64,000 bases of DNA, taken from positions 38,316,001-38,380,000 of the forward strand of contig OZ024742.1 of NCBI GenBank assembly GCA_964016885.1, written 5' to 3'. The notes beneath the pieces are model-generated. The model was not told where the DNA came from. It did not search any database and worked only from the letters and a program-made list of their open reading frames with translations. Source of the stretch: Eledone cirrhosa (Eukaryota). Below, piece by piece: positions 1 through 28,500 of the stretch (its first letter is position 1; every line of letters starts with the position of its first letter). The position numbers were made by a program, and so were the translations under genes.

Positions 1-1493
1 GATGAACACCAACTTTTACGCTAAACTCTTCACTATATTCGTTGTTAATTCTAACCTTGCTGACTGTTTCTTTATACATGGCTTGTATAGCTCTCACAAC
101 CCATTCATCAACACATAGTTTTCTAAGAGCCCACCAGATAATGGAACGGGGGACTCTGTCGAAGGCTTTCTCCAAGTCGACAAAAGCTAAGTATAGGGGT
201 TTACTTTTAGCTAGGTACTTCTCCTGTAGTTGTCGTACAATGAAAAGAGCGTCTGTGGCACTTTTACCTGACACAGACTCGAACTGCATTTCATCTAGGT
301 CAATTCTCTCTCTGATTAGTTGCGCTATTACTTTTTCTGTGACCTTCATGACCTGGTCGATTAATTTAATGCCTCTATAGTTACCCCTATTTAGGGCATC
401 TCCTTTACCCTTGTAGCAGTTAATGATGATGCTGCTACACCAGTCCTTCGGAACAACCCCATTCTGTATGACTTGGTTTACTATCCGGGTGACCATAGTG
501 TGTCCCACCGTTCCAGAAGCTTTCAGCATTTCAGCAACTATTTCCGAAGGCCCAGCCGCCTTACCCGTCTTCATATCTTTGATTGCCTTACTTATTATAC
601 TACCTTCGACTAACACTGCTGGTCCCTCTATTGGATCGATGTGGGGGAGACTGTCTTTCTCCCATTTATTCTCCTCATTTAGTAGCCTTTCGTAGTGACA
701 CTTCCATGCTACCTTCTTATCAGCGTCAGTGATGGCAAGTACACCATTATCATTAAGGACACACTTCTCCCTGACAATATCACGGTTTTCCTTGACACAT
801 TGCCTAGCAATCCTGAACACCTCACGTTTTTGGTCCTTGCGTTGTAGAAGATGCTTGAACTTTCTTTCCTCTGCTTCCCTTCTTGCGAAGTACACTTGTC
901 TCCTAGCTTCCCTCCTGGCCACTTGATAGTCTTCTCTACTTCCCCCATCCCGCATACTTTCCAAGCCTGCTTTTTGGCCTTAATTGACTCCTCCACCTTA
1001 CTGTTCCACCACCATGTTACCCTCCTCCTGCCTATAGGCCTGCTCCAGCCACAGACTTCATCTGCCGCTATCAGCAGGTTTGCTTTCAGGAATTCCCACT
1101 GTTCCTCTATATTGTACGACTCTAATTGCTCTTCCTTACTGTCGAAAGCATCAAGTAATATGCTTTTAAATTTATTACTGGCTGTGGGGTCCTTTAGCTT
1201 CCATATTTTTCTCCTGAGGATAGTCCTCTTCTGCTGTCGAGTACGTCTCGTCCTGACTATGAGGTCGCTAATTCTGAGTCTATGTTGAGAGGTGCATTCT
1301 TCGTGGGGGAGGGATTTAGTGTTTACAACAGACACTCTGTCACGTCTTCTGGTAAGGATATAATCTACCTGGCTGGTATGTTCCCCTGATCTGTAGGATC
1401 AAGTGATTGTCTCGTTTTTTTAAGTTAGTCTTACAGATAGTTAGGTTATTTGCGTCACAGAATTCCAGGATTCTGGAGCCTTCCTCATTTCTG
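1..1493 (-). mobile_element. 5'-truncated RTE-clade LINE (end of endonuclease, linker and RT N-terminal part); runs off the window start
   Basis: Minus frame reads ...KTGKAAGPSEIVAEMLK...NYRGIKL...FVDLEKAFDRVPR.... It aligns nearly base for base with 27018-28490, and similarity ends abruptly at ~1493. Confidence 0.95.
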
Positions 1494-2334
1494 TTAAGTT
1501 ATTATTTTAATAATTAAATAGTTTTAGTAAATCCTCAAAATTGTCCATAAATTAATTGAAATAGAATGTATTTCATTCGAAATATGATTAAGAAAGAGTT
1601 AAAGGTGTTTTCTCATGGTGTTGGAGACTCTGGGATTATATTATCTATGTACTTTCTTTTTATATAATAGTGGGGGTATGGTTTGAGGGAGATTTGGCTT
1701 CTATTTCTAGCACATTGAATGACTACATGGAAATAGTCTAGTTTGCCCATGGTGGGAAGCATGCCACTCTTTTGAATAGCAGTATTCTTGTAAAACTGGT
1801 ATTGTTGCTAGTGATGATTATTGTGGACTTAGTGACCTCATGCTGTTAGTTATAATGACAATAGTGTTGAACATTTTTAATTTTTTAGTCCAGGATTAGT
1901 ATAGTATATTTACCAGGAATACTAGGATTAGTATAGTATATTTACCAGGAATACTAGATAGATGAGCAATCATACAAAATGAGAAATTTGCATTTTGATA
2001 AAAATTAATATTTTTCATAAGAGAAACCCAATAGTTTATGTTAATTACTGAGACATGGAAGTGCACCTGAGCACTGTACACAATATTTCATTATTATATA
2101 AAAGATAAGAATGATACTTTTATAGCTAGGATAGAATCACACAAATGTTCAGTATATATATGTACAAATGATATATAGAATTAAATGTTTGAGTAATTTA
2201 GGAGAAATGTTCATTTACAGGGACAAATGCAAAGCTGGAACCCAGGACCTTGTGATCAGTGAATTTCTTATTGTAGCAACATGACTGAGATAGGAAATAC
2301 AGTGTGTATGGTTATGTGTGTACATTTTAAAGAG

Positions 2335-2338
<4 letters not shown>

Positions 2339-2398
<60 letters not shown>
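2339..2398. repeat. (TA)n microsatellite
   Basis: Pure TA run. Similar runs occur at ~2981-3031, 24527-24561, 48190-48240, 48322-48375, 50544-50587 and 62941-62974. Confidence 0.95.
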
Positions 2399-2401
<3 letters not shown>

Positions 2402-2402
<1 letters not shown>

Positions 2403-2979
2403 CGGGATGTTTGTTTACAAACAGACCGAGCATTATAATAAATGTTCAGTGAATCCATACGTACATATATATATGTGTGCATGTATGTATATATATATAT
2501 ACATACTACTGTACGTCTGTATACATATATGTATGTACGTATACATACTTATATTTAAGTAACAGCCGTACTAAGAGTGGGAAATGAAATTTCGTTTCAT
2601 TTTTTCCGTTTATCGTTTTCGGTGCACCCGGCCGATTAACCCACTCGATATGCAAATTGGGCTACTCAGCCGTTAATATGCATAAGGAAAGTATATACTT
2701 TCAGACGTTCAATCATCTGGCAGGAAGATATACGTTGCTGACGATAGCTAATAAGCTTGAAACTAGTACAGCGTTCCTTTGTCAGTGTTGAACAAACGAG
2801 CAACGATGGTTGCTAGACACTACGGCTTAACACGGGATGCTTGTTTACAAACACACCGAGCATTATAATAAATGTTCAGTGAATCCATACGTACATATAT
2901 ATATGTGTGCATGTATGTATATATATATATATACATATTACTGTACGTCTGTATACATATATGTATGTACGTATACATA

Positions 2980-2985
<6 letters not shown>
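2402..2985 (+). mobile_element. 430-bp-period partial tandem repeat carrying a hammerhead motif (Penelope pLTR-like or retrozyme-like unit)
   Basis: 2402-2555 is repeated almost exactly at 2832-2985 (both start ACGGGATG.TTGTTTACAAACA). The unique middle part is CpG-rich and holds the hammerhead. Confidence 0.6.
2722..2778 (+). ncRNA. Minimal type I hammerhead ribozyme motif
   Basis: Stem I ACGTTG(2732-37)/CAGCGT(2769-74), extended by AGGA/TCCT. Core CTGACGA (2738-44). Stem II AGCT-AATA-AGCT. GAAA (2759-62). Palindromic stem III ACTAGT. Cleavage triplet GUA ending at 2768. Confidence 0.75.
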
Positions 2986-3035
<50 letters not shown>

Positions 3036-4513
3036 AATATAAATTATCGAGAATCGTATTTCAGCTATTGGAAATTAGCGAAAAACAACTTCCGAGATGT
3101 GTGGCAAGCGCTCAATAGATTCTAACGAACCAGAGCTACAACATACGTTAAAAGGCCAAACACACTGAGACGATGGTTAAACCATTATCCGCACAGTCAT
3201 AGAAACGACCAAGTAATTCGGGTCAAACAAATAAAAAAATGATTGAAAAATTTACCTGGACCCCTGGATGGTTGGTGAAAATCCAACATTTGGGTTTCTG
3301 CGACTCCTAAATCAAGTACTGTCCGCTTAGAGAAATAATTGTTTCTACTTTAGGCACAAGGCCAGCAATTACCCAGTGCAGAGAAATAATGTTAAGCTTT
3401 TGGTAAGATGATTGAACAAGGAAGTCACTTTCTCAACAGGCTTTTAGTTCAAGTGCCAGGCCAAGGATTGACCGTTACCAATACCCACGTGGGGCTCGGC
3501 AAGGGAGGCAACCCTTATTTTTGGCGGATGAATTTAGTATGTGTAATATTGCAAAATTGCAAAATATCACAAAACGAATCAAGTTCTCAACAGAATGGTT
3601 TTAAAGTTAACAAAAGCTATTCATCAGTCAATAGAATCAACTAAAAAAATCAAGAAAATTAACTGGTCAATAGCTAGACTCTGGAGATTAATACAATTAT
3701 ATATATAAATATGTAAACACACGTAGCAGATTACTATGGTTAATTGCATATTCCTTTTCAAATATAGTGTATCTAGAACTATATTGTCCAACAAGAAAAA
3801 CCTCTACTTTTCACTTCCAAAGATCATTTTTATTTAAATGAAGTTCCCCACATACACCCACTCTGTAAAGTAGTTGATAGAAAGCGCATCTGACCATTAG
3901 AAACCTGTCGAACAAAGGGTTGGGAGGACAGTTCAGCTGTGTTAAAGACATGGCAACCTTCTTAAAACTGGTGCCAAGATAAAATGACCTGGTAGAGTGC
4001 AGGAACATATGTAAGATAGATGTAGGCACCTTGCCCTTCTAAGAAGTCAGTAGTTCTGCTTGAGTATTGACTTGCTCTGTAAAGACCCATTCAAACCTTG
4101 TTAGCAGGGAAAACTGGGCGTTAAATGAAGATGATGACTCCAGCTACAGTTACTCCCACCCCAGATTATTATACATTGAGATCCAATAGCATTTGTATAT
4201 AAATAAATAAATATACAAACACATGGCGTATTATGATCGTTGACGATAGTTTGGTCAGGATGATTGTGTGGTAGGAAGCAACTGGAAAGTCAGCTGCATA
4301 GAGTAGGATGTCGATTAAAGTAATGGTGCCAACAGCTGCTAGTTCTGGCTGTTCTTCTCTTCAGTTTGGAAGAGCTGCTATCATTAATATATGATATAGG
4401 AAGAATCAATAACTGACTGTGCTGCAGATTGGAGATGACAGTGAGAAGATAGGCTTTGTGGGTGGTGTGTCTGTGTACACACATTTTTGTGTGTATGGCT
4501 TTGGCTCTATGAT

Positions 4514-4672
4514 AATATTTCATTATTGTTATTATTATTATATCATGACTCATACACTGTTCATTTTCCTGACATTTGTACATTATTCTATGTACTATAC
4601 ATGCACCTTTGATGAGTTGTAGTGCACCTGAGCACTGTACACAATAATTTCATTATTATTATTATTATTATT
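4514..4672 (+). mobile_element. CR1 LINE 3'-end fragment with (ATT)n tail
   Basis: Matches the 3' UTR of the long CR1 (~47995-48120), including GAGTTGTAGTGCACCTGAGCACTGTACACAATA. Confidence 0.9.
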
Positions 4673-5992
4673 ATAACCGTTTCATTACAATATCCTAATG
4701 AAAGACATTGCCTATGATCTTCAGATAATTTAAATCATTATGGATTTGAAGGGGTTTAGTAATATAACTAACTTTATTCATTATTTATCTGGTATTGGAA
4801 CTCAATTTTGACATAATTATGATGTAAGGTTTTTAGATAAATATAAACACTAAACACTTTAAAATAGACAGATTTTATAGTAAAACCAGAGGTAGTTTCA
4901 GGCAATTTGATATCATGAGGGTTAACCATTTCATTACCGTATTTCTGACAAAAGACATTACCTATGATTTTCAAATAATTCTTTAAATAATCAAGAATTT
5001 GAAGGGAGTTAATAATATAACTTTCTCATTACTTATATTGTTTGAAGCCTAACTTAACAAAGGTTCTTACAAAGGTCTAACACACGTGGGCATGCCCACA
5101 AAGTCAGAAAACAGCACAGTTCCCATGACTTTCGGAAACATTTTTTCACGCTCAGAATTGCTGGAACAAACTACCTGCATCCTTTAAAACCTCCATGCTT
5201 CCCGAGATTCGCCAACACTACATCTAATGTTCCCCCTCCATACACATACACACATGTATATCATGACTCGTACACTATTCACTTCCCTGACATTTGTATA
5301 TTATTCTATGTACTATATATGCACCTTTGACGAGTTGTAGTGCACCTGAGCACTTTACACAATAATTTCATTATTATAATTATTATATAATTGTCATGGT
5401 AGGTTTGTAGAAAAATACAGATATTTGAAAATAAGCAGTTCTATATTATAGAACCTGGGGCAGTTTCAGGTGGTTTGGTAACAGAGGGTTTAATGAGTGT
5501 GCACCCATGCATGTGTGTATTGTTGAATGTCCCTTTACTTGGGACATAACACAATAACAGTATTAACCCATTTGCTCTGATATTTCTTATGAAAAATACT
5601 GCCAAAGATTATCAATTAACTTTTAAAATCAGAAATATAGAGGACTTTAGTCATAGAACTAACTTTCTCATTATTAGATTTAGAACGGTTTAAATTTAAA
5701 CATGAGCACTTTAACCCTTTAGCATTTACATTACTCTATATTTACTATTATATTTTCATGGTAAAAGCTTTACCCTACATAATTATCTCACATAATATCA
5801 AATCTATGAGATTTTGATATAATTTATTTTGAGAACATTACCTTAACGTCAGTATGAGGAACTGGGTAAAGCCAGTTTGAACAGAAAGAGGTGAGAGAAT
5901 TATGGCCAGTTTAAATGCTAAAGGGTTAAAACAAATAGGTTTTCATCATAGAACCAAGGCAATTTCAGACGGTTTGGAATAAAAAAAGTTAA
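4672..5992. mobile_element. Cluster of TTAA-flanked (piggyBac-type) MITEs with nested insertions
   Basis: TTAACC...GGTTAA termini. MITE A at 5711-5929 has TIRs TTAACCCTTTAGCATTTA/TAAATGCTAAAGGGTTAA. ~250-bp MITE B copies share a TTAA at 4922-4925. A CR1 3' fragment (5076-5387) is nested inside. Confidence 0.7.
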
Positions 5993-7654
5993 TGATACAT
6001 GTATCCATAAGCTCTTCTGTAGTTCAGATCAACTGGAAAGAGTTCCAATACACACACGCATGTACATTTGGAACTTTCCCTCCATGCAGCATTAAGTACA
6101 TCAGCCTTACCAGTCTGAGAAGGCTTGAAAAGACTATGGGCTGTACACAACTTTTTTGATAACCAACTCACTCAAAACTGCCCCAGTTTCTATAAAACAA
6201 AGCCATCCATTTAAAAGAGTTCCTATATAAATTAAAATCTTCCAATATAATTTCACGTCAGAACTTTTACTTAAGGCAATAAAATGATTAATGATTTTTA
6301 TTAAAAAAATGTTTTATTTATACAGAATATTTCATTTGAAATATGATCACAAAAGGCTTAGTAAATATATGGAGAGCATATATGTCTATATCTAATGATA
6401 TAGACATATTAAGCTTTGTCTATCATGTGAATGATCTTCCCATTCCTTCTATTTTTATTGCTTTTAGTGACCAAATCATGTGCACTTGGGAGGATGGTCT
6501 ACATGCATGTGTACTAAAAGCATCCTACACACACACCACACCACTCTGTGTGCATGTATTATTAGTGCTTTGTATAATTACCGGAAGTAAACAATGAATG
6601 GGAGAACCTCTATGTGGTTTTTCAACTTGGTAGAAATAGCAGTCAAATCACCCTCAAATCACACACACCCTATTACCTTACCAAAATAAGAATAAAGAGA
6701 CTAAAAATGGTGAATGTAGTCCTGAATATATAAAGAGAGGGAATGGTAATGGCTGGAATACCTTTGACCATAGGTCTATTGGATTGGGGCTCAATATATA
6801 TCTTAATGGAGTATTATTGATTAGCTATTAATTAACTCCAATTAGCTTAACTGCAAGACTTTTAGTGTATATCATGAAGTTGCATGCTTCAGTGGTTAGG
6901 ATGTTCGGTTCACAGTTCTAAGATTGTGAAGTCAATTCCTGACAGTGCATTGTTATTCTTGAGCAAGATATTTTGTTTCTCTCTATTCAGCTAGTAAAAA
7001 TATGTTGTACCTGTTATTCTGTGAGGCAGTCTTGTTACTCACTTGCACATTAATTTCATGTGTAAGCTGTTCTCACGATCAAATTAACTGGAACACTTGT
7101 CATCATATCAGACAGATGTCCAATACACACACACACACACACCTGTAACAGATATATCAGAGCTTCTGAAATTGGTGGAGGAGAGGGAAGTGATGAAGAA
7201 GAGATGTATCGTAGGTCAAGATATCCAATTATCCATAGATCAGCAGATACCTAGTTCAAATGCAAGAGCCAGGTGGTGTTGTCAAACTAGGCAGTGGAAT
7301 TAGGCTACTAGCCAAATGTAGGTGCAGCCCATCTAGTGGACTTCTGCACAATTTCCATTGTCCATGCTGGCATTGGTTTGATGGGTTGTCATGGTCCAAT
7401 ACTAGACTGATCACAGGGTCACATTTTGCTTATATGTTCTATTTTCAACATGGTTTCTACTGCTGGATGCCTCTCCTAGTGGCAAAAACTTTACAGAGTG
7501 TTTTGGGTGCATTATCATAGTACTAGCATAAAAAAAAGGGAATTTACATCACATTCTTATGCAAGTTTAACTAACCTCCTACAATGTTGCATCTCATATG
7601 AGATTTCTCAGTTGTCTTTTGATACGAGCTCCAGTTTTATCATGATATCATGAC

Positions 7655-7782
7655 ATGTATATCATGACTCATACACTATTCACTTCCCTGACATTTGTAT
7701 ATTATTCTATGTACTATACATGCACCTTTGACGAGTTGTAGTGTACCTGAGCACTGTACACAATAATTTCATTATTATTATT
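7655..7782 (+). mobile_element. CR1 3'-end fragment
   Basis: Same 3' UTR, stem-loop and ATT tail as the 48-kb CR1. Confidence 0.85.
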
Positions 7783-7796
7783 TTTGATAACATAAA

Positions 7797-7985
7797 AGGG
7801 CGGTGGATTGGCAGTATCGGTAGAGAGTCGGACGCCATGCTTTGACGCATAGAGTTACGGCCCTTGCCATTCTGAGTTCAAATCCCGCTGAGGTTAACTC
7901 TGCCTTTCATCCTTATGGAGTCGATAAAATAAAGTACCAGTAATACACTGGGTAATTGGTGGCCTTGTGCCAAAAGTAGAAATTA
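7797..7985 (+). mobile_element. tRNA-derived SINE with Meta/MESC-like core
   Basis: A-box-like TGGCAGTATCGG, B-box GAGTTCAAATCC, core GCCTTTCATCCT...GTCGATAAAATAAAGTACCAG. Similar copies at ~14510-14660 (+) and ~40790-40975 (-). The core-domain name is recalled, not searched. Confidence 0.7.
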
Positions 7986-8762
7986 TTTTTATGATAACAT
8001 CACACTATCATTTTACTGAGTGTATTGGTTGCATTTTATCATGGCAGCTACACTTGAGAGATTGTCATGTACTTGGCAAAACTGAAAAGTTCTCTCTACC
8101 TTATGTTGTCTTTGTTTGAAATTTCACTTCCATGCTATGGCAGAAGACACTTCCCCGAGGTTCCATGTGGTGAGATCAAACCTAAAATCACATGGTTGTG
8201 AAGCATACTTCTTAACCACGTAGTCATGCCAGCATTCATTGATTAGTCATGATACGCACCAATTAATTAAAGTAATGCAGGACCTTTAATGTAGTGCTTT
8301 TGTGCAATCACAATACTTTGCTTAAATCCTATATTTGCTTTAACTTGTTAATATATGATTCAATGGAATGAAAGATCATAAGTTGACTTCTAAGCCAACA
8401 ATGCATGGATTACCTACCCCTCCCCCTCTTCCCCACACTCACATACAAAGTCTCTAGTTAACTCTTGTATACAAATGTTAACAGCTGCATATGAAAACTG
8501 TTAACCTTGCTGTTGGTGCCGAGTCAATTATGTACATGCACACATACAGATATGTACATATGTGATGTACTGACACATGTAAATGCACACATACACGTAC
8601 AGGCATATACCCCCCCAACATAAAGAACATATTTGCAGGGACAGCTTTTCATATCTTGATATTCCTAACCTTCACACCTTAGTACTCTAAACTTTCCTTT
8701 TTTGGGACTCTCAAGATTTCCTCTATTTTTTATCTTTCTTTTTATTTATTTATGTGTGTATA

Positions 8763-9410
8763 AAATAATAATAATGAAATTATTGTGTACAGTGCTCAGG
8801 TGCACTACAACTCATCAAAGGTGCATGTATAGTACATAGAATAATGTACAAATGTCAGGAAAATGAACAGTGTATGAGTCATGATATAATAACAATAACA
8901 ATAATGAAATATTGTGTACAGTGCCCAGGTGCACCACAACTCATCAAAAAAGTGCATGTAGTGCTTTTGTGCAATCACAATACTTTGCTTAAATCCTATA
9001 TTTGCTTTAACTTGTTAATATATGATTCAATGGAATGAAAGATCATAAGTTGACTTCTAAGCCAACAATGCATGGATTACCTACCCCTCCTCCTCTTCCC
9101 CACACTTGCATACAAAGGGCAATGCACAAACATCAGTAAAATGAACAGTGCACGAGTCATGATACACACATGTGTGCATGTGTATGGAAGGGGTACATCA
9201 GGTGTAGTTTTGGCGTATTTCGGGAAGCATGAGTGTCTTAAAGGATGCAGTGTCTCGGCAGCTAACAATTGACGCAGGCAGTTTGTTCCATGCTTCAGCA
9301 ACTCTGAGCGTGAAAAAATGTCTGCGAAAGTCATGGGAGCTGTGCTGTTTTCTTATCTTGTAGGCATGTCCACGTGTGTTAGACACATGGAGATCAAAGA
9401 GGCACTCAGG
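8763..9410 (-). mobile_element. Two tandem CR1 3'-end fragments, one interrupted by a 162-bp locally copied insert
   Basis: The minus ORF fragment SNTRGHAYKIRKQHSSHDFRRHFFTLRVAEAWNKLP is the CR1 RT C-terminus. Two ATT tails end at ~8763 and ~8894. Confidence 0.9.
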
Positions 9411-9584
9411 TATATGTTATCCCTAGCTTATTCTTTCTCCAGGATTGTCTTTCATAAGTGATGCTCATCTCCATCACAGCTCTCTGGTTTGCTCTGTCCA
9501 TTGATTTCCACAACCCAACAATTTGTTTTCAACCACCCATCTTAGCAAGAAATATATTACATATTCTGACATGGTAAAATTGTT

Positions 9585-12500
9585 GGTAGTAGAGGTGGTG
9601 TTGTGATGTCAGTGGTAGTAGTGTCATTATTGTGATGTTGGTGGTAGTAGTGGTGTTGTGATGTTAGTGGTGGTGCTGTGATGTCTGGTAGTGATGGTGT
9701 TGTGAGATAATGGTAGTCGTGGTGTTGTAATGTCAGTGGTAGTAGTGGTATTGTAATGATGTCGGTGGTAACGGTGCTGGTGTTGTGAGATAGTGGTGGT
9801 GTTGTTGAGATGTTGGTGGTAGTGGTGGTGTTGTGATGTCAGTGGTAGTAGTGGTATTGTAATGATGTCAGTAGTAGTAGTGTTGTTGTGATGTTGGTGG
9901 TAGTGGTGGTACAGGTGGTGTTGTTGGGATGTTGGTGGTAGTGGGGGTGTTGTTGGGATGTAGGTGGTAGAGGTGGTGTTGTTGGGATGTCGGTGGTAGT
10001 GGTGGTGTTGTTGGAGTGTTGGTGGTAGTGGTGGTGTTGGATTTTGGTGGTAGTGGTGATATTGGTGGTAGTGGTGGTGTTGTTGGGATATTGGTGGTAG
10101 TGGTGGTAGAGGTGGTGTTGTTGGGATGTTGGTGGTAGTAGTGGTGGTGTTGTTGGGATGTTGGTGGTAGTGGTGGTGTTGTTGGGATGTAGGTGGTATT
10201 GGTGGTAGTGGTGGTGTTGTTGGGATGTTGGTGGTAGTGGTGGTGTTGTTGGGATGGTGTTCGTAGTGGTGGTGTTGTTGGGATGTTGCTGGTAGTGGTG
10301 GTGTTGTTGGGATGGTGGTGGTAGTGGTGGTAGTGGTGGTGTTGTTGGGATGGTGTTCGTAGTGGTGGTGTTGTTGGGATGTTGCTGGTAGTGGTGGTGT
10401 TGTTGGGTGGTGGTGGTAGAGGTGGTGTTGTTGGGATGTTGGTGGTAGTGGTGGTAGTGGTGGTGTTGTTGGGATGTTGCTGGTAGTGGTGGTGTTGTTG
10501 GGATGGTGGTGGTGTTGATGGTAGTGGTGGTAGTGGTGGTAGAGGTGGTGTTGTTGGGATGGTGGTGGTGTTGTTGGGATGTTGGTGGTAGTGGTGGTAG
10601 TGGTGGTGTTGTTGGGATGTTGGTGGTAGTGGTGGTAGTGGTGGTAGAGGTGGTGTTGTTGGGATGTTAGTGGTGGTGTTGGTGGGATGTTGGTGGTAGT
10701 GGAGGTGTTGTTAGTATGTTGGTGGTAGTGGTGGTGTTGTTGGGATGTTGGTGGTAGAGGTGGTAGTGGTGGTGTTGTTGGGATGTTGGTGGTAGTGGTG
10801 GTAGTGGTGGTAGAGGTGGTGTTGTTGGGATGTTAGTGGTGGTGTTGGTGGTAGTGGAGGTGTTGTTAGTATGTTGGTGGTAGTGGTGGTGTTGTTGGGA
10901 TGTTGGTGGTAGAGGTGGTAGTGGTGGTGTTGTTGGGATGTTGGTGGTAGTGGTGGTAGTGGTGGTGTTGTTGGGATGTTGGTGGTAGTGGTGGTGTTGT
11001 TGGGATGTTGGTGGTAGTGGTGGTAGTGGTGGTGTTGTTGGGATGTTGGTGGTAGTGGTGGTGTTGTTGGGATGTTGGTGGTAGTGGTGGTGTTGTTGGG
11101 ATGTTGGTGGTAGAGGTGGTAGTGGTGGTGTTGTTGGGATGTTGGTGGTAGTGGTGGTGTTGTTGGGATGTTGGTGGTAGTGGTGGTGTTGTTGGGATGT
11201 TGGTGGTAGAGGTGGTAGTGGTGGTGTTGTTGGGATGTTGGTGGTAGTGGTGGTGTTGTTGGGATGTTGGTGGTAGTGGTGGTGTTGTTGGGATGTTGGT
11301 GGTAGTGGTGGTGTTGTTGGGATGTTGGTGGTAGTGGGGGTGTTGTTGGGATGTTGGTGGTAGTAGTGGTGTTGTTGGGATGTTGGTGGTAGTGGTGGTG
11401 TTGTTGGGATGTTGGTGGTAGTGGTGGTGTTGTTGGGATGTTGGTGGTAGTGGTGGTAGTGGTGGTGTTGTTGGGATGTTGGTGGTAGTGGTGGTGTTGT
11501 TGGGATGTTGGTGGTAGTGGTGGTGTTGTTGGGATGTTGGTGGTAGAGGTGGTAGTGGTGGTGTTGTTGGGATGTTGGTGGTAGTGGTGGTGTTGTTGGG
11601 ATGTTGGTGGTAGTGGTGGTAGTGGTGGTGTTGTTGGGATGTTGGTGGTAGTGGTGGTGTTGTTGGGATGTTGGTGGTAGTGGTGGTGTTGTTGGGATGT
11701 TGGTGGTAGTGGTGGTGTTGTTGGGATGTTGGTGGTAGTGGTGGTAGTGGTGGTGTTGTTGGGATGTTGGTGGTAGTGGTGGTAGTGGTGGTGTTGTTGG
11801 TGGTAGTGGGGGTGTTGTTGGGATGTTGGTGGTAGTAGTGGTGTTGTTGGGATGTTGGTGGTAGTGGTGGTAGTGGTGGTGTTGTTGGGATGTTGGTGGT
11901 AGTAGTGGTAGTAGTGGTGTTGTTGGGATGTTGGTGGTAGTGGTGGTGTTGTTGGGATGTTGGTGGTAGTGGGGGTGTGGTTGGGATGTTGGTGGTAGTG
12001 GTGGTGTTGTTGGGATGTTGGTGGTAGTGGTGGTGTTGTTGGGATGTTGGTGGTAGTGGGGGTGTGGTTGGGATGTTGGTGGTAGTGGTGGTGTTGTTGG
12101 GATGTTGGTGGTAGTGGGGGTGTTGTTGGGATGTTGGTGGTAGTGGTGGTGTTGTTGGGATGTTGGTGGTAGTGGTGGTGTTGTTGGGATGTTGGTGGTA
12201 GTGGGGGTGTGGTTGGGATGTTGGTGGTAGTGGTGGTGTTGTTGGGATGTTGGTGGTAGTGGTGGTAGTGGTGGTGTTGTTGGGATGTTGGTGGTAGTGG
12301 GGGTGTGGTTGGGATGTTGGTGGTAGTGGTGGTGTTGTTGGGATGTTGGTGGTAGTGGGGGTGTTGTTGGGATGTTGGTGGTAGTAGTGGTGTTGTTGGG
12401 ATGTTGGTGGTAGTGGGGGTGTGGTTGGGATGTTGGTGGTAGTGGTGGTGTTGTTGGGATGTTGGTGGTAGTGGTGGTAGTGGTGGTGTTGTTGGGATGT

Positions 12501-12703
12501 TGGTGGTAGTGGGGGTGTGGTTGGGATGTTGGTGGTAGTGGTGGTGTTGTTGGGATGTTGGTGGTAGTGGTGGCAGTGGTGGTGTTGTTAGTATGTTGTT
12601 GGTATTTGTGGTAGTGGTAGTAGTGGTGGCAGTGGTGGTGTTGTTGGGTTGTTGGTGGTAGTGGTGGTGTAGGTGGTAGTGGTGGTGTTGGTGGTAGTGG
12701 TGT
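9585..12703. repeat. G/T-rich minisatellite, 29-bp unit GTTGGTGGTAGTGGTGGTGTTGTTGGGAT with 38-bp variants
   Basis: Direct inspection shows a ~3.1-kb array with almost no C on the plus strand, degenerate edges and a homogeneous core. Confidence 0.97.
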
Positions 12704-13359
12704 ATGTTTTCTGATCTATTTTCTGAATGAGAAATCTGAAAATAGAACTGGCATTTTCTTAAGGACGTCTTAGTTATACAGAAAAGTTATGTGTGTATAC
12801 ATGCATGTGTGTGCACATGCATCATCATCATTGTTTAATTATAGTAGAAGACAACTGCAATCCCCCTCCACCCATACAAATGCATGCACATTAAATATAT
12901 AGTGAGTATTGTGCTTACAAAATTACATCTCTGGTTGAATAAAGTCACAAGGTCCCTCATATACATATATTTTGTGTGTGTATATGTGTATCTGTATGTG
13001 CGTGTGTGTGTGTATAATATACACACACACACATATCCGTGTATGTGGATACAAACAGTTATACAAGCTTATGCATAAACTCACCCAAACACACTCACTG
13101 ATAGTACCCATAAGCACATCCATACACCCACACTCATACATAAGCATATACATACATACACACAAACATGTACACACACACACGCACAAAAGTGCATAAA
13201 AAATTTGGACACACGTGTATGCACACCCATAAACACATCCGCACACTCACACCCATACATATGCATACACATGGAGCTGAATACATAAAGTCAGCACTGC
13301 AGACTTTATGTATTCGGTTCCGTACATTGTTTATATATATATATATCTATCTAGGGTGG

Positions 13360-17655: not shown

Positions 17656-17867
17656 GACTGGAAGCTGACATGTCAGTTGAAGTGAGTGAGCAGGATATGC
17701 TAGGGCCTCTCTCAAGTATGGCCACCACCGAACCAGACTGCCTACTTTACTTGGCCTGGATCTTTATAAATGTATGCAGTTTGTACGCCTTCTATTCTTC
17801 AAGCATTGGTCAACACATGATTAATAAAATACACACACTTTGGCAGGAACATCAACATATAGAATAG
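17656..17867 (+). CDS. TXNDC15: Last coding exon of a thioredoxin domain-containing protein 15-like gene
   Basis: Acceptor TTTTGTCTTTTTTAG, phase 1. Translation (G)LEADMSVEVSEQDMLGPLSSMATTEPDCLLYLAWIFINVCSLYAF...WQEHQHIE* resembles the TXNDC15 C-terminus as recalled (GIEAKKNVVVTQADQIGPLPS...DWLLVFSLFF...EQEHVE), including the TM helix. Confidence 0.8.
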
Positions 17868-25591: not shown

Positions 25592-28500
25592 ATCATCATC
25601 ATCATCATCATCATCATCGTTTAACGTCCATGTTCCACGCTTGCATGGGTTTGGCCGGGAGTTTTCCCACTTGAGGCAAGAGTGGTTGTCTTGCTCGCAT
25701 AGGACTGTCTGGCGGGTTTTCTACAGCTGGATGCCCTTCCTAACACCAACCACATTTACAGTGTGGGACTGGGAGGTTTTTACCGTGTTGCCTACACGGC
25801 CACATTACAGCGTGGACTGTGTGTTTTTTTGTCGTGACACCTACACGATCTCATTTGTTTCGGCCTGGATGTTGTGGCACCAACATAACTTTACATTAAA
25901 GGGGTGGGGTGGGGGGGGGGGGGGTTATTTTGTTAGAGATGCCTACTGACTGTAGTAGGTTTTACTTTGTATTTAGGTAAGGCGGGTCTTCTCTATTACT
26001 GAGTGCCGCCAAAGATCTCGGTCCAGTGACATTGTCTTGGAGAGGTGTAAGTGTGTGAGGTCAGAGTTTATCAGGTCGTCCCAGGTTTTTCTGGGTCTGC
26101 CTACTCCGTGGCTACCGTCTATCTTTATTGCCCTGCACTTTTTTATACAGCTGTCGTCTTTCATGCGCATCACGTGACCATACCAACGTAGCCTTCTCTC
26201 GAGTAAACAACATCTGATCCCTCTTATTTCTAATTTTTCCCTTAGTTCGTTTATGCTTTGCCGTTCGCGTAAAATTACTATTACACATCCAGCGGAGCAT
26301 GCAAGCTTCGTTCTTCTCTAGTCTGCGTATATCCTCTGCACACAATGCCCAGGTCTCACTGCCATGCAACATTGCTGTTCGTATGCAGGCATCATACAGC
26401 CTGCCTTTCATTTTTAGGGAGAACCTTTTAGCGGCTAATAGTGGTATAAGCTCTCTGAACTTTTTCCATCCAGTTCTGACTCTAGCTACTGTACTTTCAG
26501 AGCACCCTCCCCCACTGCTGATTTTGTCACCCAGGTAACGGAAGCTGTCCACTATTTCTATAGAACCCTCTGCACAATTGAAAGAGCTAGTATTTTGTGG
26601 GCACTTGCTGCTACTTATTGCACCAGAGCACCGGCCACATGTAAAATCTGTTCTTAGTTAGCTTACCTATGATCCCACTACATCTTTTATGCACCCATAC
26701 TTTGCATTTGGGACATAAAATGGAGTTTCTACCTACGCCTTTCCTACACACTGAGCATGGCCATTTTCCGGAAGGGACCGGCGCCTTATTTTCTTTCCTA
26801 CAAACTAGAACTTTAGTCTTAGCCAGGTTAATTTTAAGGCCTTTTGATTCTAGGCCGTGCTTCCATGTTTGGAATTTCTTCTCTAGCTCGGCCATTGATT
26901 CAGCTATGAGCGTTAGATCATCTGCGTATAGGAGTTCCCATGGGCAGCCGGTCTTGAACTCCACTGTTATAGCCTGAAGGGCAATAATAAATAGTAGGGG
27001 GCTAAGAACAGAGCCCTGATGAACACCAACTTTTACGCTAAACTCTTCACTATATTCGTTGTTAATTCTAACCTTGCTGACTGTTTCTTTATACATGGCT
27101 TGTATAGCTCTCACAACCCATTCATCAACACCTAGTTTTCTAAGAGCCCACCAGATAATGGAACGGGGGACTCTGTCGAAGGCTTTCTCCAAGTCGACAA
27201 AAGCTAAGTATAGGGGTTTACTTTTAGCTAGGTACTTCTCCTGTAGTTGTCGTACAATGGAAAGAGCGTCTGTGGTACTTTTGCCTGACACAAACCCGAA
27301 CTGCATTTCATCTAGATCAATTCTCTCTCTGATTAGTTGCGCTATTACTTTTTCCGTGACCTTCATGACCTGGTCGATTAATTTAATGCCTCTATAGTTA
27401 CTCCTATCTAGGGCGTCTCCTTTACCCTTGTAGCAGTTAATGATGATGTTGCTACGCCAGTCCTTCGGAACAACCCCATTCTGTATGACTTGGTTTACTA
27501 TCCGGATGACCATGGTGTGTCCCACCGTTCCAGAGGCTTTCAGCATCTCAGCAACTATTTCCGAAGGCCCAGCCGCCTTACCCGTCTTCATATCTTTGAT
27601 TGCCTTACTTATTATACTACCTTCGACTAACACTGCTGGTCCCTCTATTGGATTGATGTGGGGGAGACTCTTTCTCCCATTTATTCTCCTCATTTAGTAG
27701 CCTTTCGTAGTGACACTTCCAAGCTACCTTCTTATCAGCGTCAGTGATGGCAAGTACACCATCATCACTAAGTACACACTTCTCCCCGACAATATCACGG
27801 TTTTCCTTGACACATTGCCTAGCAATCCTGAACACCTCACGTTTTTGGTCCTCACGTTGTAGAACATGCTTGAACTTTCTTTCCTCTGCTTCCTTTCTTG
27901 CGAAGTACACTTGTCTCCTAGCTTCCCTCCTGGCCACTTGATAGTCTTCTCTACTTCCCCGATCCCGCATACTTTCCAAGCCTGCTTTTTGGCCTTAATT
28001 GACTCCTCCACCTTACTGTGCCACCACCATGTTACTCTCCTCCTGCCTACAGGCCTGCTGCCGCCATCAGCAGGTTTGCTTTCAGGAATTCCCACTGTTC
28101 CTCTATATTGTACGACTCTAATTGCTCTTCCTTACTGTCGAAAGCATCAAGTAATATGCTTTTAAATTTATTTCTGGTTGTGGGGTCCTTTAGCTTCCAT
28201 ATTTTCTCCTGAGGATAGTCCTCTTCTGCTGTCGAGTACGTCTCGTCCTGACTATGAGGTCGCTAATTATCAGTCTATGTTGGGAGGTGCATTCTTCATG
28301 GGGGAGGGATTTAGTGTTTACAACAGACACTCTGTCACGTCGTCTGGTAAGGATATAATCTACCTGGCTGGTATGTTCCCCTGATTTGTAGGTGATCAAG
28401 TGATTGTCTCGTTTTTTGAAGTTAGTATTACAGATAGTTAGGTTATTTGCATCACAGAATTCCAGGATTCTGGAGCCTTCCTCGTTTCTAGTACCAAACC

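Follow-up and report, generated by a model that had tools for sequence, protein, structure and literature searches.

Retrozymes, Penelope-like elements and the helper question

The non-LTR retrozymes described in mussel, coral and axolotl are non-coding, low-GC sequences which are found in their genomes as tandem units of 150–450 bp, each unit carrying one canonical type I hammerhead ribozyme, and which are dispersed in thousands of copies (Cervera and de la Pena 2020, PMC7229834). The RNA circles formed by these retrozymes have been demonstrated in the same report, which also describes two axolotl hammerheads with structural weaknesses: HHR_Amex1, where helix III consists of one base pair and a palindromic tetraloop, and HHR_Amex2, where a U.U pair stands at the base of helix II. 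In both, cleavage is better in the dimer; in Xenopus, eight of nine retrozyme dimers did not cleave (bioRxiv 2026.07.22.740005). How animal retrozymes are moved is still debated. Penelope elements have been proposed as their helpers (PMC7761336; bioRxiv 2026.07.22.740005), but a 2020 review states that the retrozyme repeats themselves give no clue to the helper (PMC7761336), and the 2026 preprint, which bases its case on homology and on the joint occurrence of the elements, does not settle the mechanism (bioRxiv 2026.07.22.740005).

Penelope insertions, for their part, have a recognisable anatomy. Inverted arms with a tail at one end are hallmarks of the group, and the Hydra-clade elements target (TA)n tracts, where they leave an inverted, 5'-truncated arm and a one-end tail of 30–40 nt (Craig et al. 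2021, PMC8557442). Poseidon of Anolis, PAc, is an autonomous element with an AT-rich target, the reverse transcriptase of which starts at two internal sites, the tail being what lies between them, and extends both strands of the target; insertion does not need hammerhead cleavage, and unprocessed RNA is used (Frangieh et al. 2024, PMC11167929). Non-autonomous elements which depend on Penelope, and which insert as multicopy head-to-tail arrays, are known as MRC1 and other Chlamys elements; these are from green algae, most are without canonical hammerheads, and their 3' ends resemble those of their partners (PMC8557442). In cephalopods, 235 Rfam hammerheads have been counted in the giant squid genome (PMC6962438), and no octopus or other cephalopod retrozyme family was found in the published literature, of which the supplementary species lists could hold one.

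It is in this context that a single insertion was examined in a 64,000-nt stretch of octopus DNA (the window). The insertion spans 2398..2983 on the plus strand and consists of 1.36 units of a tandem unit of about 430 bp, as delimited by arm mapping and by a direct repeat (2398–2501 and 2828–2931, 97% identity, spacing 430). It is a single arm, truncated at its 5' side and closed by the inner, tail-less 3' end described below, and it sits between two (TA)n tracts, at 2339..2397 on the left and 2984..3031 on the right, which together form its target site. The initial annotation of this locus recognised the ribozyme but missed both the surrounding 430-bp unit and the family to which it belongs. 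A single intronic motif is ordinary; the importance of the locus lies with the family, since the mover of animal retrozymes is the point under debate and the octopus families give unusually direct genomic evidence on how retrozymes move. Judged by its sequence organisation, the window element is a copy of a high-copy octopus non-LTR retrozyme and a new member of that group. Such retrozymes being already known, what is new here is the octopus family and the anatomy of its insertions, the first of which could be changed by published supplements.

The hammerhead and its two main families

The hammerhead occupies 2722..2779 on the plus strand, and its sequence is as the initial annotation gave it, with every core nucleotide present (C3–A9, G12–A14, A15.1–U16.1 and H17). 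CUGACGA lies at 2738–2744 and is followed by U2745; stem II pairs 2746–2749 with 2754–2757 around an AAUA loop, after which come U2758 and GAA at 2759–2761; and the palindromic stem III, ACUAGU, spans 2762..2767, where it forms a predicted dimer interface. The proximal part of stem I pairs 2732–2737 with 2769–2774 and includes one U.G, and cleavage is predicted at 2768/2769, with A2768 as A17. These six base pairs agree with the initial annotation; its outer stem I of four (AGGA/TCCT) does not stand for the family, since it needs A2728, a rare variant carried by 97 copies, whereas most copies have G at this position and an outer stem of AAGG/CCUU. Similarly, the U.U that had been flagged as a possible handicap is indeed there in place of G10.1–C11.1, both in the window motif and across the family, but it is a family state rather than decay, as U is found in 146/146 and 145/146 copies at 10.1 and 11.1 in a sample biased towards intact copies. 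HHR_Amex2 provides a precedent for it, and the octopus motif joins in one ribozyme the two weak features that Amex1 and Amex2 have one each (PMC7229834).

With a helix I of 6 bp, a helix II of 4 bp and a short palindromic helix III, the motif is of the canonical class and not of the minimal one to which it had been assigned. In other words, the minimal hammerhead of Penelope-like elements (min-HHR) is defined by the lack of helix III, a long helix II (7–8 bp) and a short helix I (4–5 bp) (PMC4209133), whereas here helix II has 4 bp, helix I has 6 bp plus the outer stem, and helix III is a hexamer.

The window motif taken alone is not distinctive. Its fold is no better than chance (z = −0.70; 46 of 200 shuffles equally stable), and a loose core pattern has 5 matches within the 64,000 nt, against 3.15 expected. 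Comparison with Rfam, which had been suggested as a check, did not bear the motif out, the best match being Hammerhead_HH9 at 20.4 bits (E 0.0041), below the gathering score of 52. A wider Rfam scan, over 1.2 kb, had no hammerhead family among the matches listed; its miRNA matches were discarded as artefacts of the TA microsatellite.

It is the genome-wide copies and their covariation which confirm, at the level of sequence, that the motif is a real type I hammerhead, as first proposed. The 31-nt core of this family (family A) has 24,157 exact matches in the genome, as compared with 0 for a reversed control, and relaxing stem II raises the count to 27,846, again with 0 for the control. Family A units occur singly and in tandem arrays, dispersed at high copy number, with one type I hammerhead per unit and a unit length within the 150–450 bp range of retrozymes. 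They are non-coding, having no ORF beyond microsatellite frames and no LTR structure, in a region of 33% GC, under the 50% that bounds retrozymes. When window positions 1–9500 were compared with contigs of four runs of unrecorded kind, which are uninformative on ends, strand and level, those from the two other organisms covered portions of the unit at low depth.

A pattern that excludes the ACTAGT stem III has a further 20,449 matches in the genome, against 201 for its control, and most of the first 100 of these belong to a second family (family B), with a unit of 310–311 bp and a stem III of ACGCGT. Family B is very young and forms head-to-head arrays of up to 16 hammerheads, for example at loci L153–L161 and L166 on contig C1. 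Separately, other divergent type I hammerheads, their stem III again a palindrome, are found as single motifs (L019:2095–2159, L104, L152:8770–8835 and L162–L165).

An alignment of 16 divergent copies was made from families A, B and rarer ones. In it, stems I and II covary, with 80.7% of cells paired and a covariation score of 0.493, a score to be read with the fact that the rows were hand-picked by core pattern and that related rows can inflate it. None of 500 shuffles scores as high, slid controls fall to 28–41% paired, and in 9 of the 13 pairs both partners change, such that this second suggested check came out in favour of the ribozyme. The core is invariant in all 16 copies, and pair 10.1/11.1 is unpaired in 11 of the 16 rows. 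The stem III hexamer is always self-complementary, as ACTAGT, ACGCGT or ACATGT; its pairs never vary among aligned copies and thus add nothing to the covariation.

The palindrome of stem III is predicted to favour the dimeric over the monomeric hammerhead, in accord with the initial annotation: a double hammerhead is calculated at −20.4 kcal/mol, as compared with −3.6 kcal/mol for two monomers with the same stems. A non-catalytic fold is equally low or lower, at −22.2 kcal/mol for two monomers.

Insertion ends, candidate helper and RNA template

The ends of the family A insertions were mapped at 85 loci, made up of the 30 best BLAST matches together with 58 clusters lying in the first 22.5 Mb of contig C1, minus 3 duplicates. 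Loci chosen by exact pattern or best BLAST match are biased towards young copies, and arrays may have been smoothed in assembly. While the 5' ends at these loci are scattered, the 3' ends fall at two sites, which are mostly followed by (TA)n. From the junctions to (TA)n, the inner site lies at 2551..2554 on the plus strand, its equivalent closes the window copy at 2983, and it is a putative start of reverse transcription (start 1). The outer site, at 2613, would be start 2. Junctions and fold place a tail of about 59 nt between them (2555..2613, plus strand), with a predicted hairpin just before 2613.

The use of these two ends follows a strict rule. There are 52 head-to-head pairs in the 85 loci, of which 41 have both ends classifiable and 11 do not. 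A tailed arm is joined to a tail-less one in 38 of the 41, the remainder being one pair with two tails and two pairs with none (p = 1e-8 against independent choice of ends); allowing for a duplicated pair in locus L045 leaves 36 of 39 (p = 4e-8). The unpaired hammerhead-bearing arms, of which there are 44, are more evenly divided (22 without a tail, 18 with one, 4 unclassified), and the window copy is a single arm without a tail. In family B, where the tail is about 33 nt, all nine two-armed loci among the 11 examined follow the one-tail rule.

The insertion ends themselves carry a Penelope signature, in that family A shows 5' truncation, partial tandems, an inverted 5' arm and a one-sided tail, as well as the (TA)n target of the Hydra clade. 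As compared with Hydra-clade elements, the octopus retrozyme has no ORF and a longer tail, of about 59 nt rather than 30–40 (PMC8557442). Like PAc it has two start sites, here putative, that define a tail, and an AT-rich target; unlike PAc it is not autonomous. Moreover, the Anolis enzyme in vitro has no strand preference for either start site and does not pair one start site with each strand (PMC11167929), whereas the octopus insertions in the genome use one of each. None of these features, from the pair of fixed 3' ends and the head-to-head arms to the (TA)n target, is mentioned in the main text of PMC7229834, and no published report of an insertion anatomy of this kind in retrozymes was found. 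Taken together with the tandem unit, the ends and arms agree with the link to retrozymes and Penelope elements drawn in the initial annotation, and on this sequence evidence it is likely that the element is a retrozyme moved by a Penelope enzyme. One family A array, by contrast with the (TA)n insertions, lies inside another Penelope ORF (L044:5885–6736), with an AT-rich target duplication of about 9 nt, which indicates that non-microsatellite targets are used too.

Identical ends and targets would also be expected if the unit were the detached pseudo-LTR of a Penelope family beyond those found, most copies then being truncated autonomous elements, and Xenopus retrozymes do match Penelope pseudo-LTRs (bioRxiv 2026.07.22.740005). 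This is nevertheless quite improbable for the octopus, where no arm was seen to run 5' into an ORF in the 85 loci. Penelope ORFs do stand beside some units and were considered as parents, but these were rejected as separate or nested insertions in the same tracts, with ends of their own. The unit may yet derive from a lost parent element.

To return to a retrozyme moved in trans, the genome contains a young and abundant Penelope family which is the best candidate helper on sequence grounds. A first look gave 51,677 candidates for it, and it has open frames of 713 codons containing DKT and CxCx5C. A C-terminal GIY-YIG, the CxCx5C linker, DKT and the (TA)n target place it in the Hydra clade, an assignment made by motifs and without a tree; DKT is present in two of the three ORFs of the family that were inspected, and RWR stands in place of RWK. 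Its copies are about 97% identical in protein (loci L199, L208, L227 and L228–L242). This intact resident element has two fixed 3' ends at TA, 88 nt apart, where 17 and 14 of 37 termini lie, the other 6 having run on into the ORF, and it obeys the same one-tail rule, in eight of the nine two-armed insertions with both ends called (15 loci). It shares no detectable sequence with either retrozyme unit beyond microsatellite, and tail lengths differ between the three (59 nt in family A, 33 nt in family B, 88 nt in the Hydra-clade element). Other Penelope families, of which a part was sampled for shared sequence, are present in the same loci, and five Penelope fragments matched no families in Pfam. 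Naiads also target (TA)n in Octopus, but are described in cephalopods as remnants (PMC8557442). Two further hammerhead-like sequences were seen among these elements: the terminal repeat of the Hydra-clade family holds a core in which A replaces U4 and the base of stem II is U.U, and a different Penelope family (L021:1–340) has in its 3' region a motif whose core is variant and whose stem III is palindromic.

With regard to the RNA template, the arrays of the young family B are the more informative. In a comparison of 72 full units from 10 arrays, six of the eight arrays of five or more units contain one unit sequence and the other two contain two, and units across both arms of an insertion are identical or one base apart. 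Between arrays, differences amount to 0–5 bases, with one array at 14–17. Such uniformity in both arms is what a one-unit circular template predicts, and the young arrays have the look of a single pass over one unit. In family A, which is older, the means are 5.2 differences within an array and 20.3 between loci, over 183 nt; units are often no closer within an array than to the nearest other locus, and the two arms differ by 18–39 in three loci. Young family A arrays agree (L035 and L037), such that it is from young arrays alone that a single template can be read clearly. The family A array L048 has alternating unit types, spaced at 422/420, as either a template of dimer length or a subsequent duplication of two units would give.

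This alternation is compatible with a satellite-like history, in which monomers are inserted first and unequal crossover then lengthens the arrays, a route suggested in bioRxiv 2026.07.22.740005. It is an improbable history for the families as a whole, because both head-to-head arms are multimeric, have private variants in common and end at fixed sites.

The cleavage site, in turn, constrains the template. It is read through in 24,882 copies, while at most 149 copies (72 + 77) possibly start there, and of 30 inspected about 10 are true junctions, as compared with about 6 of 30 (from 279) at a control position. No pile-up of 5' ends was found at the cleavage site, where starts are no commoner than at the control, which rules out a cut linear monomer as the template and leaves either a circle or an uncleaved multimer. 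The latter would have Penelope mobilise linear, uncleaved multimers, with the hammerhead as a relic or acting elsewhere, and it draws on the read-through itself, on the unprocessed RNA used by the Anolis Penelope (PMC11167929), on the slow cleavage predicted from the weak stem III and the U.U, on the two-armed anatomy that the autonomous element has too, and on the one unit sequence which is common to three family B arrays. Indeed, a uniform source array copied as a linear multimer would likewise yield uniform arrays; the uniformity is indirect support for a circular RNA. Against linear multimers, the differences between young arrays are fixed in all units and in both arms, as a one-unit bottleneck predicts, covariation has preserved the core and stems among unrelated units, and the retrozymes of mussel, coral and axolotl form circles (PMC7229834). 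On balance this reading is doubtful, if by no means negligible, and from the sequence patterns the template is probably a circle, in keeping with the circles demonstrated in those animals.

Fixed 3' ends, one-tail arms and uniform young arrays, considered together, fit a Penelope reverse transcriptase that primes twice on one circular RNA. We suggest that tandem transcripts would cleave as double hammerheads and then ligate into RNA circles, and that the Penelope reverse transcriptase and endonuclease would likely insert the ~430-nt unit into (TA)n tracts. From the ends, the protein would nick both strands of the tract and each strand would be primed at one of two neighbouring sites within a single RNA; from the arrays, each polymerase would make a variable number of rounds of the circle, and the 5' ends of the two cDNAs would be joined to give the head-to-head arms, with the window copy as a one-armed product. 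The scheme in full, which assigns both nicks and both fixed priming sites to one complex acting on one ribozyme-made circle in a single event, and makes the hammerheads of both families passengers of a recently active Hydra-clade element, is an even call. Two-site priming on one circle is not described in the literature found. Were it true, about 45,000 hammerheads in the two families would be such passengers, and circle and enzyme would be a ready pair for in vitro work. Penelope-type ends, a one-tail rule shared with an intact resident element and arrays that look written in one pass open the helper question, and with it the rolling-circle model, to direct testing.

The copy in the TXNDC15 intron

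The window copy lies within a gene. The exon at 17656..17867, on the plus strand, is the last coding exon of TXNDC15 by its similarity to octopod sequences (96% to Octopus vulgaris, 94% to Argonauta hians), and the preceding exon is about 10.9 kb upstream of the window, where the intron holding the insertion starts. The motif is thus in sense orientation within a TXNDC15 intron, just as the initial annotation had placed it, and this intron is the last one, of about 28.5 kb. A thioredoxin family search and motif scans of the window missed TXNDC15, the exon being found by reading the sequence. Of the divergent hammerheads seen as single motifs, one is situated some 31 kb upstream of the window, close to the first TXNDC15 exon match.

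The sense orientation and intact core of the window copy, together with a trans dimer with retrozyme RNA that is possible on energy, might suggest its co-option for cutting or regulating the TXNDC15 pre-mRNA, alone or in trans through its palindrome. Such a role is most improbable for a single hammerhead with a weak stem III which lies 13–15 kb from either splice site, has a rare change in its outer stem I and is not distinguished among about 25,000 copies. Cores occur at about one per 110–125 kb and many insertions are two-armed, so that nothing particular need be invoked for a sense copy in an intron of 28 kb. The window copy is likely an ordinary one, neutral for TXNDC15, and its hammerhead likely comes from a parasitic RNA circle copied by a Penelope enzyme and is not a regulator of the host gene.

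Two other features were observed in the window. A G/T-rich, low-complexity tandem repeat of about 3 kb lies at 9500–12800, in the same TXNDC15 intron, with a GC skew of up to 0.99. A LINE-like reverse transcriptase is represented by two related minus-strand fragments, at 1–1400 and about 26,600–28,000.
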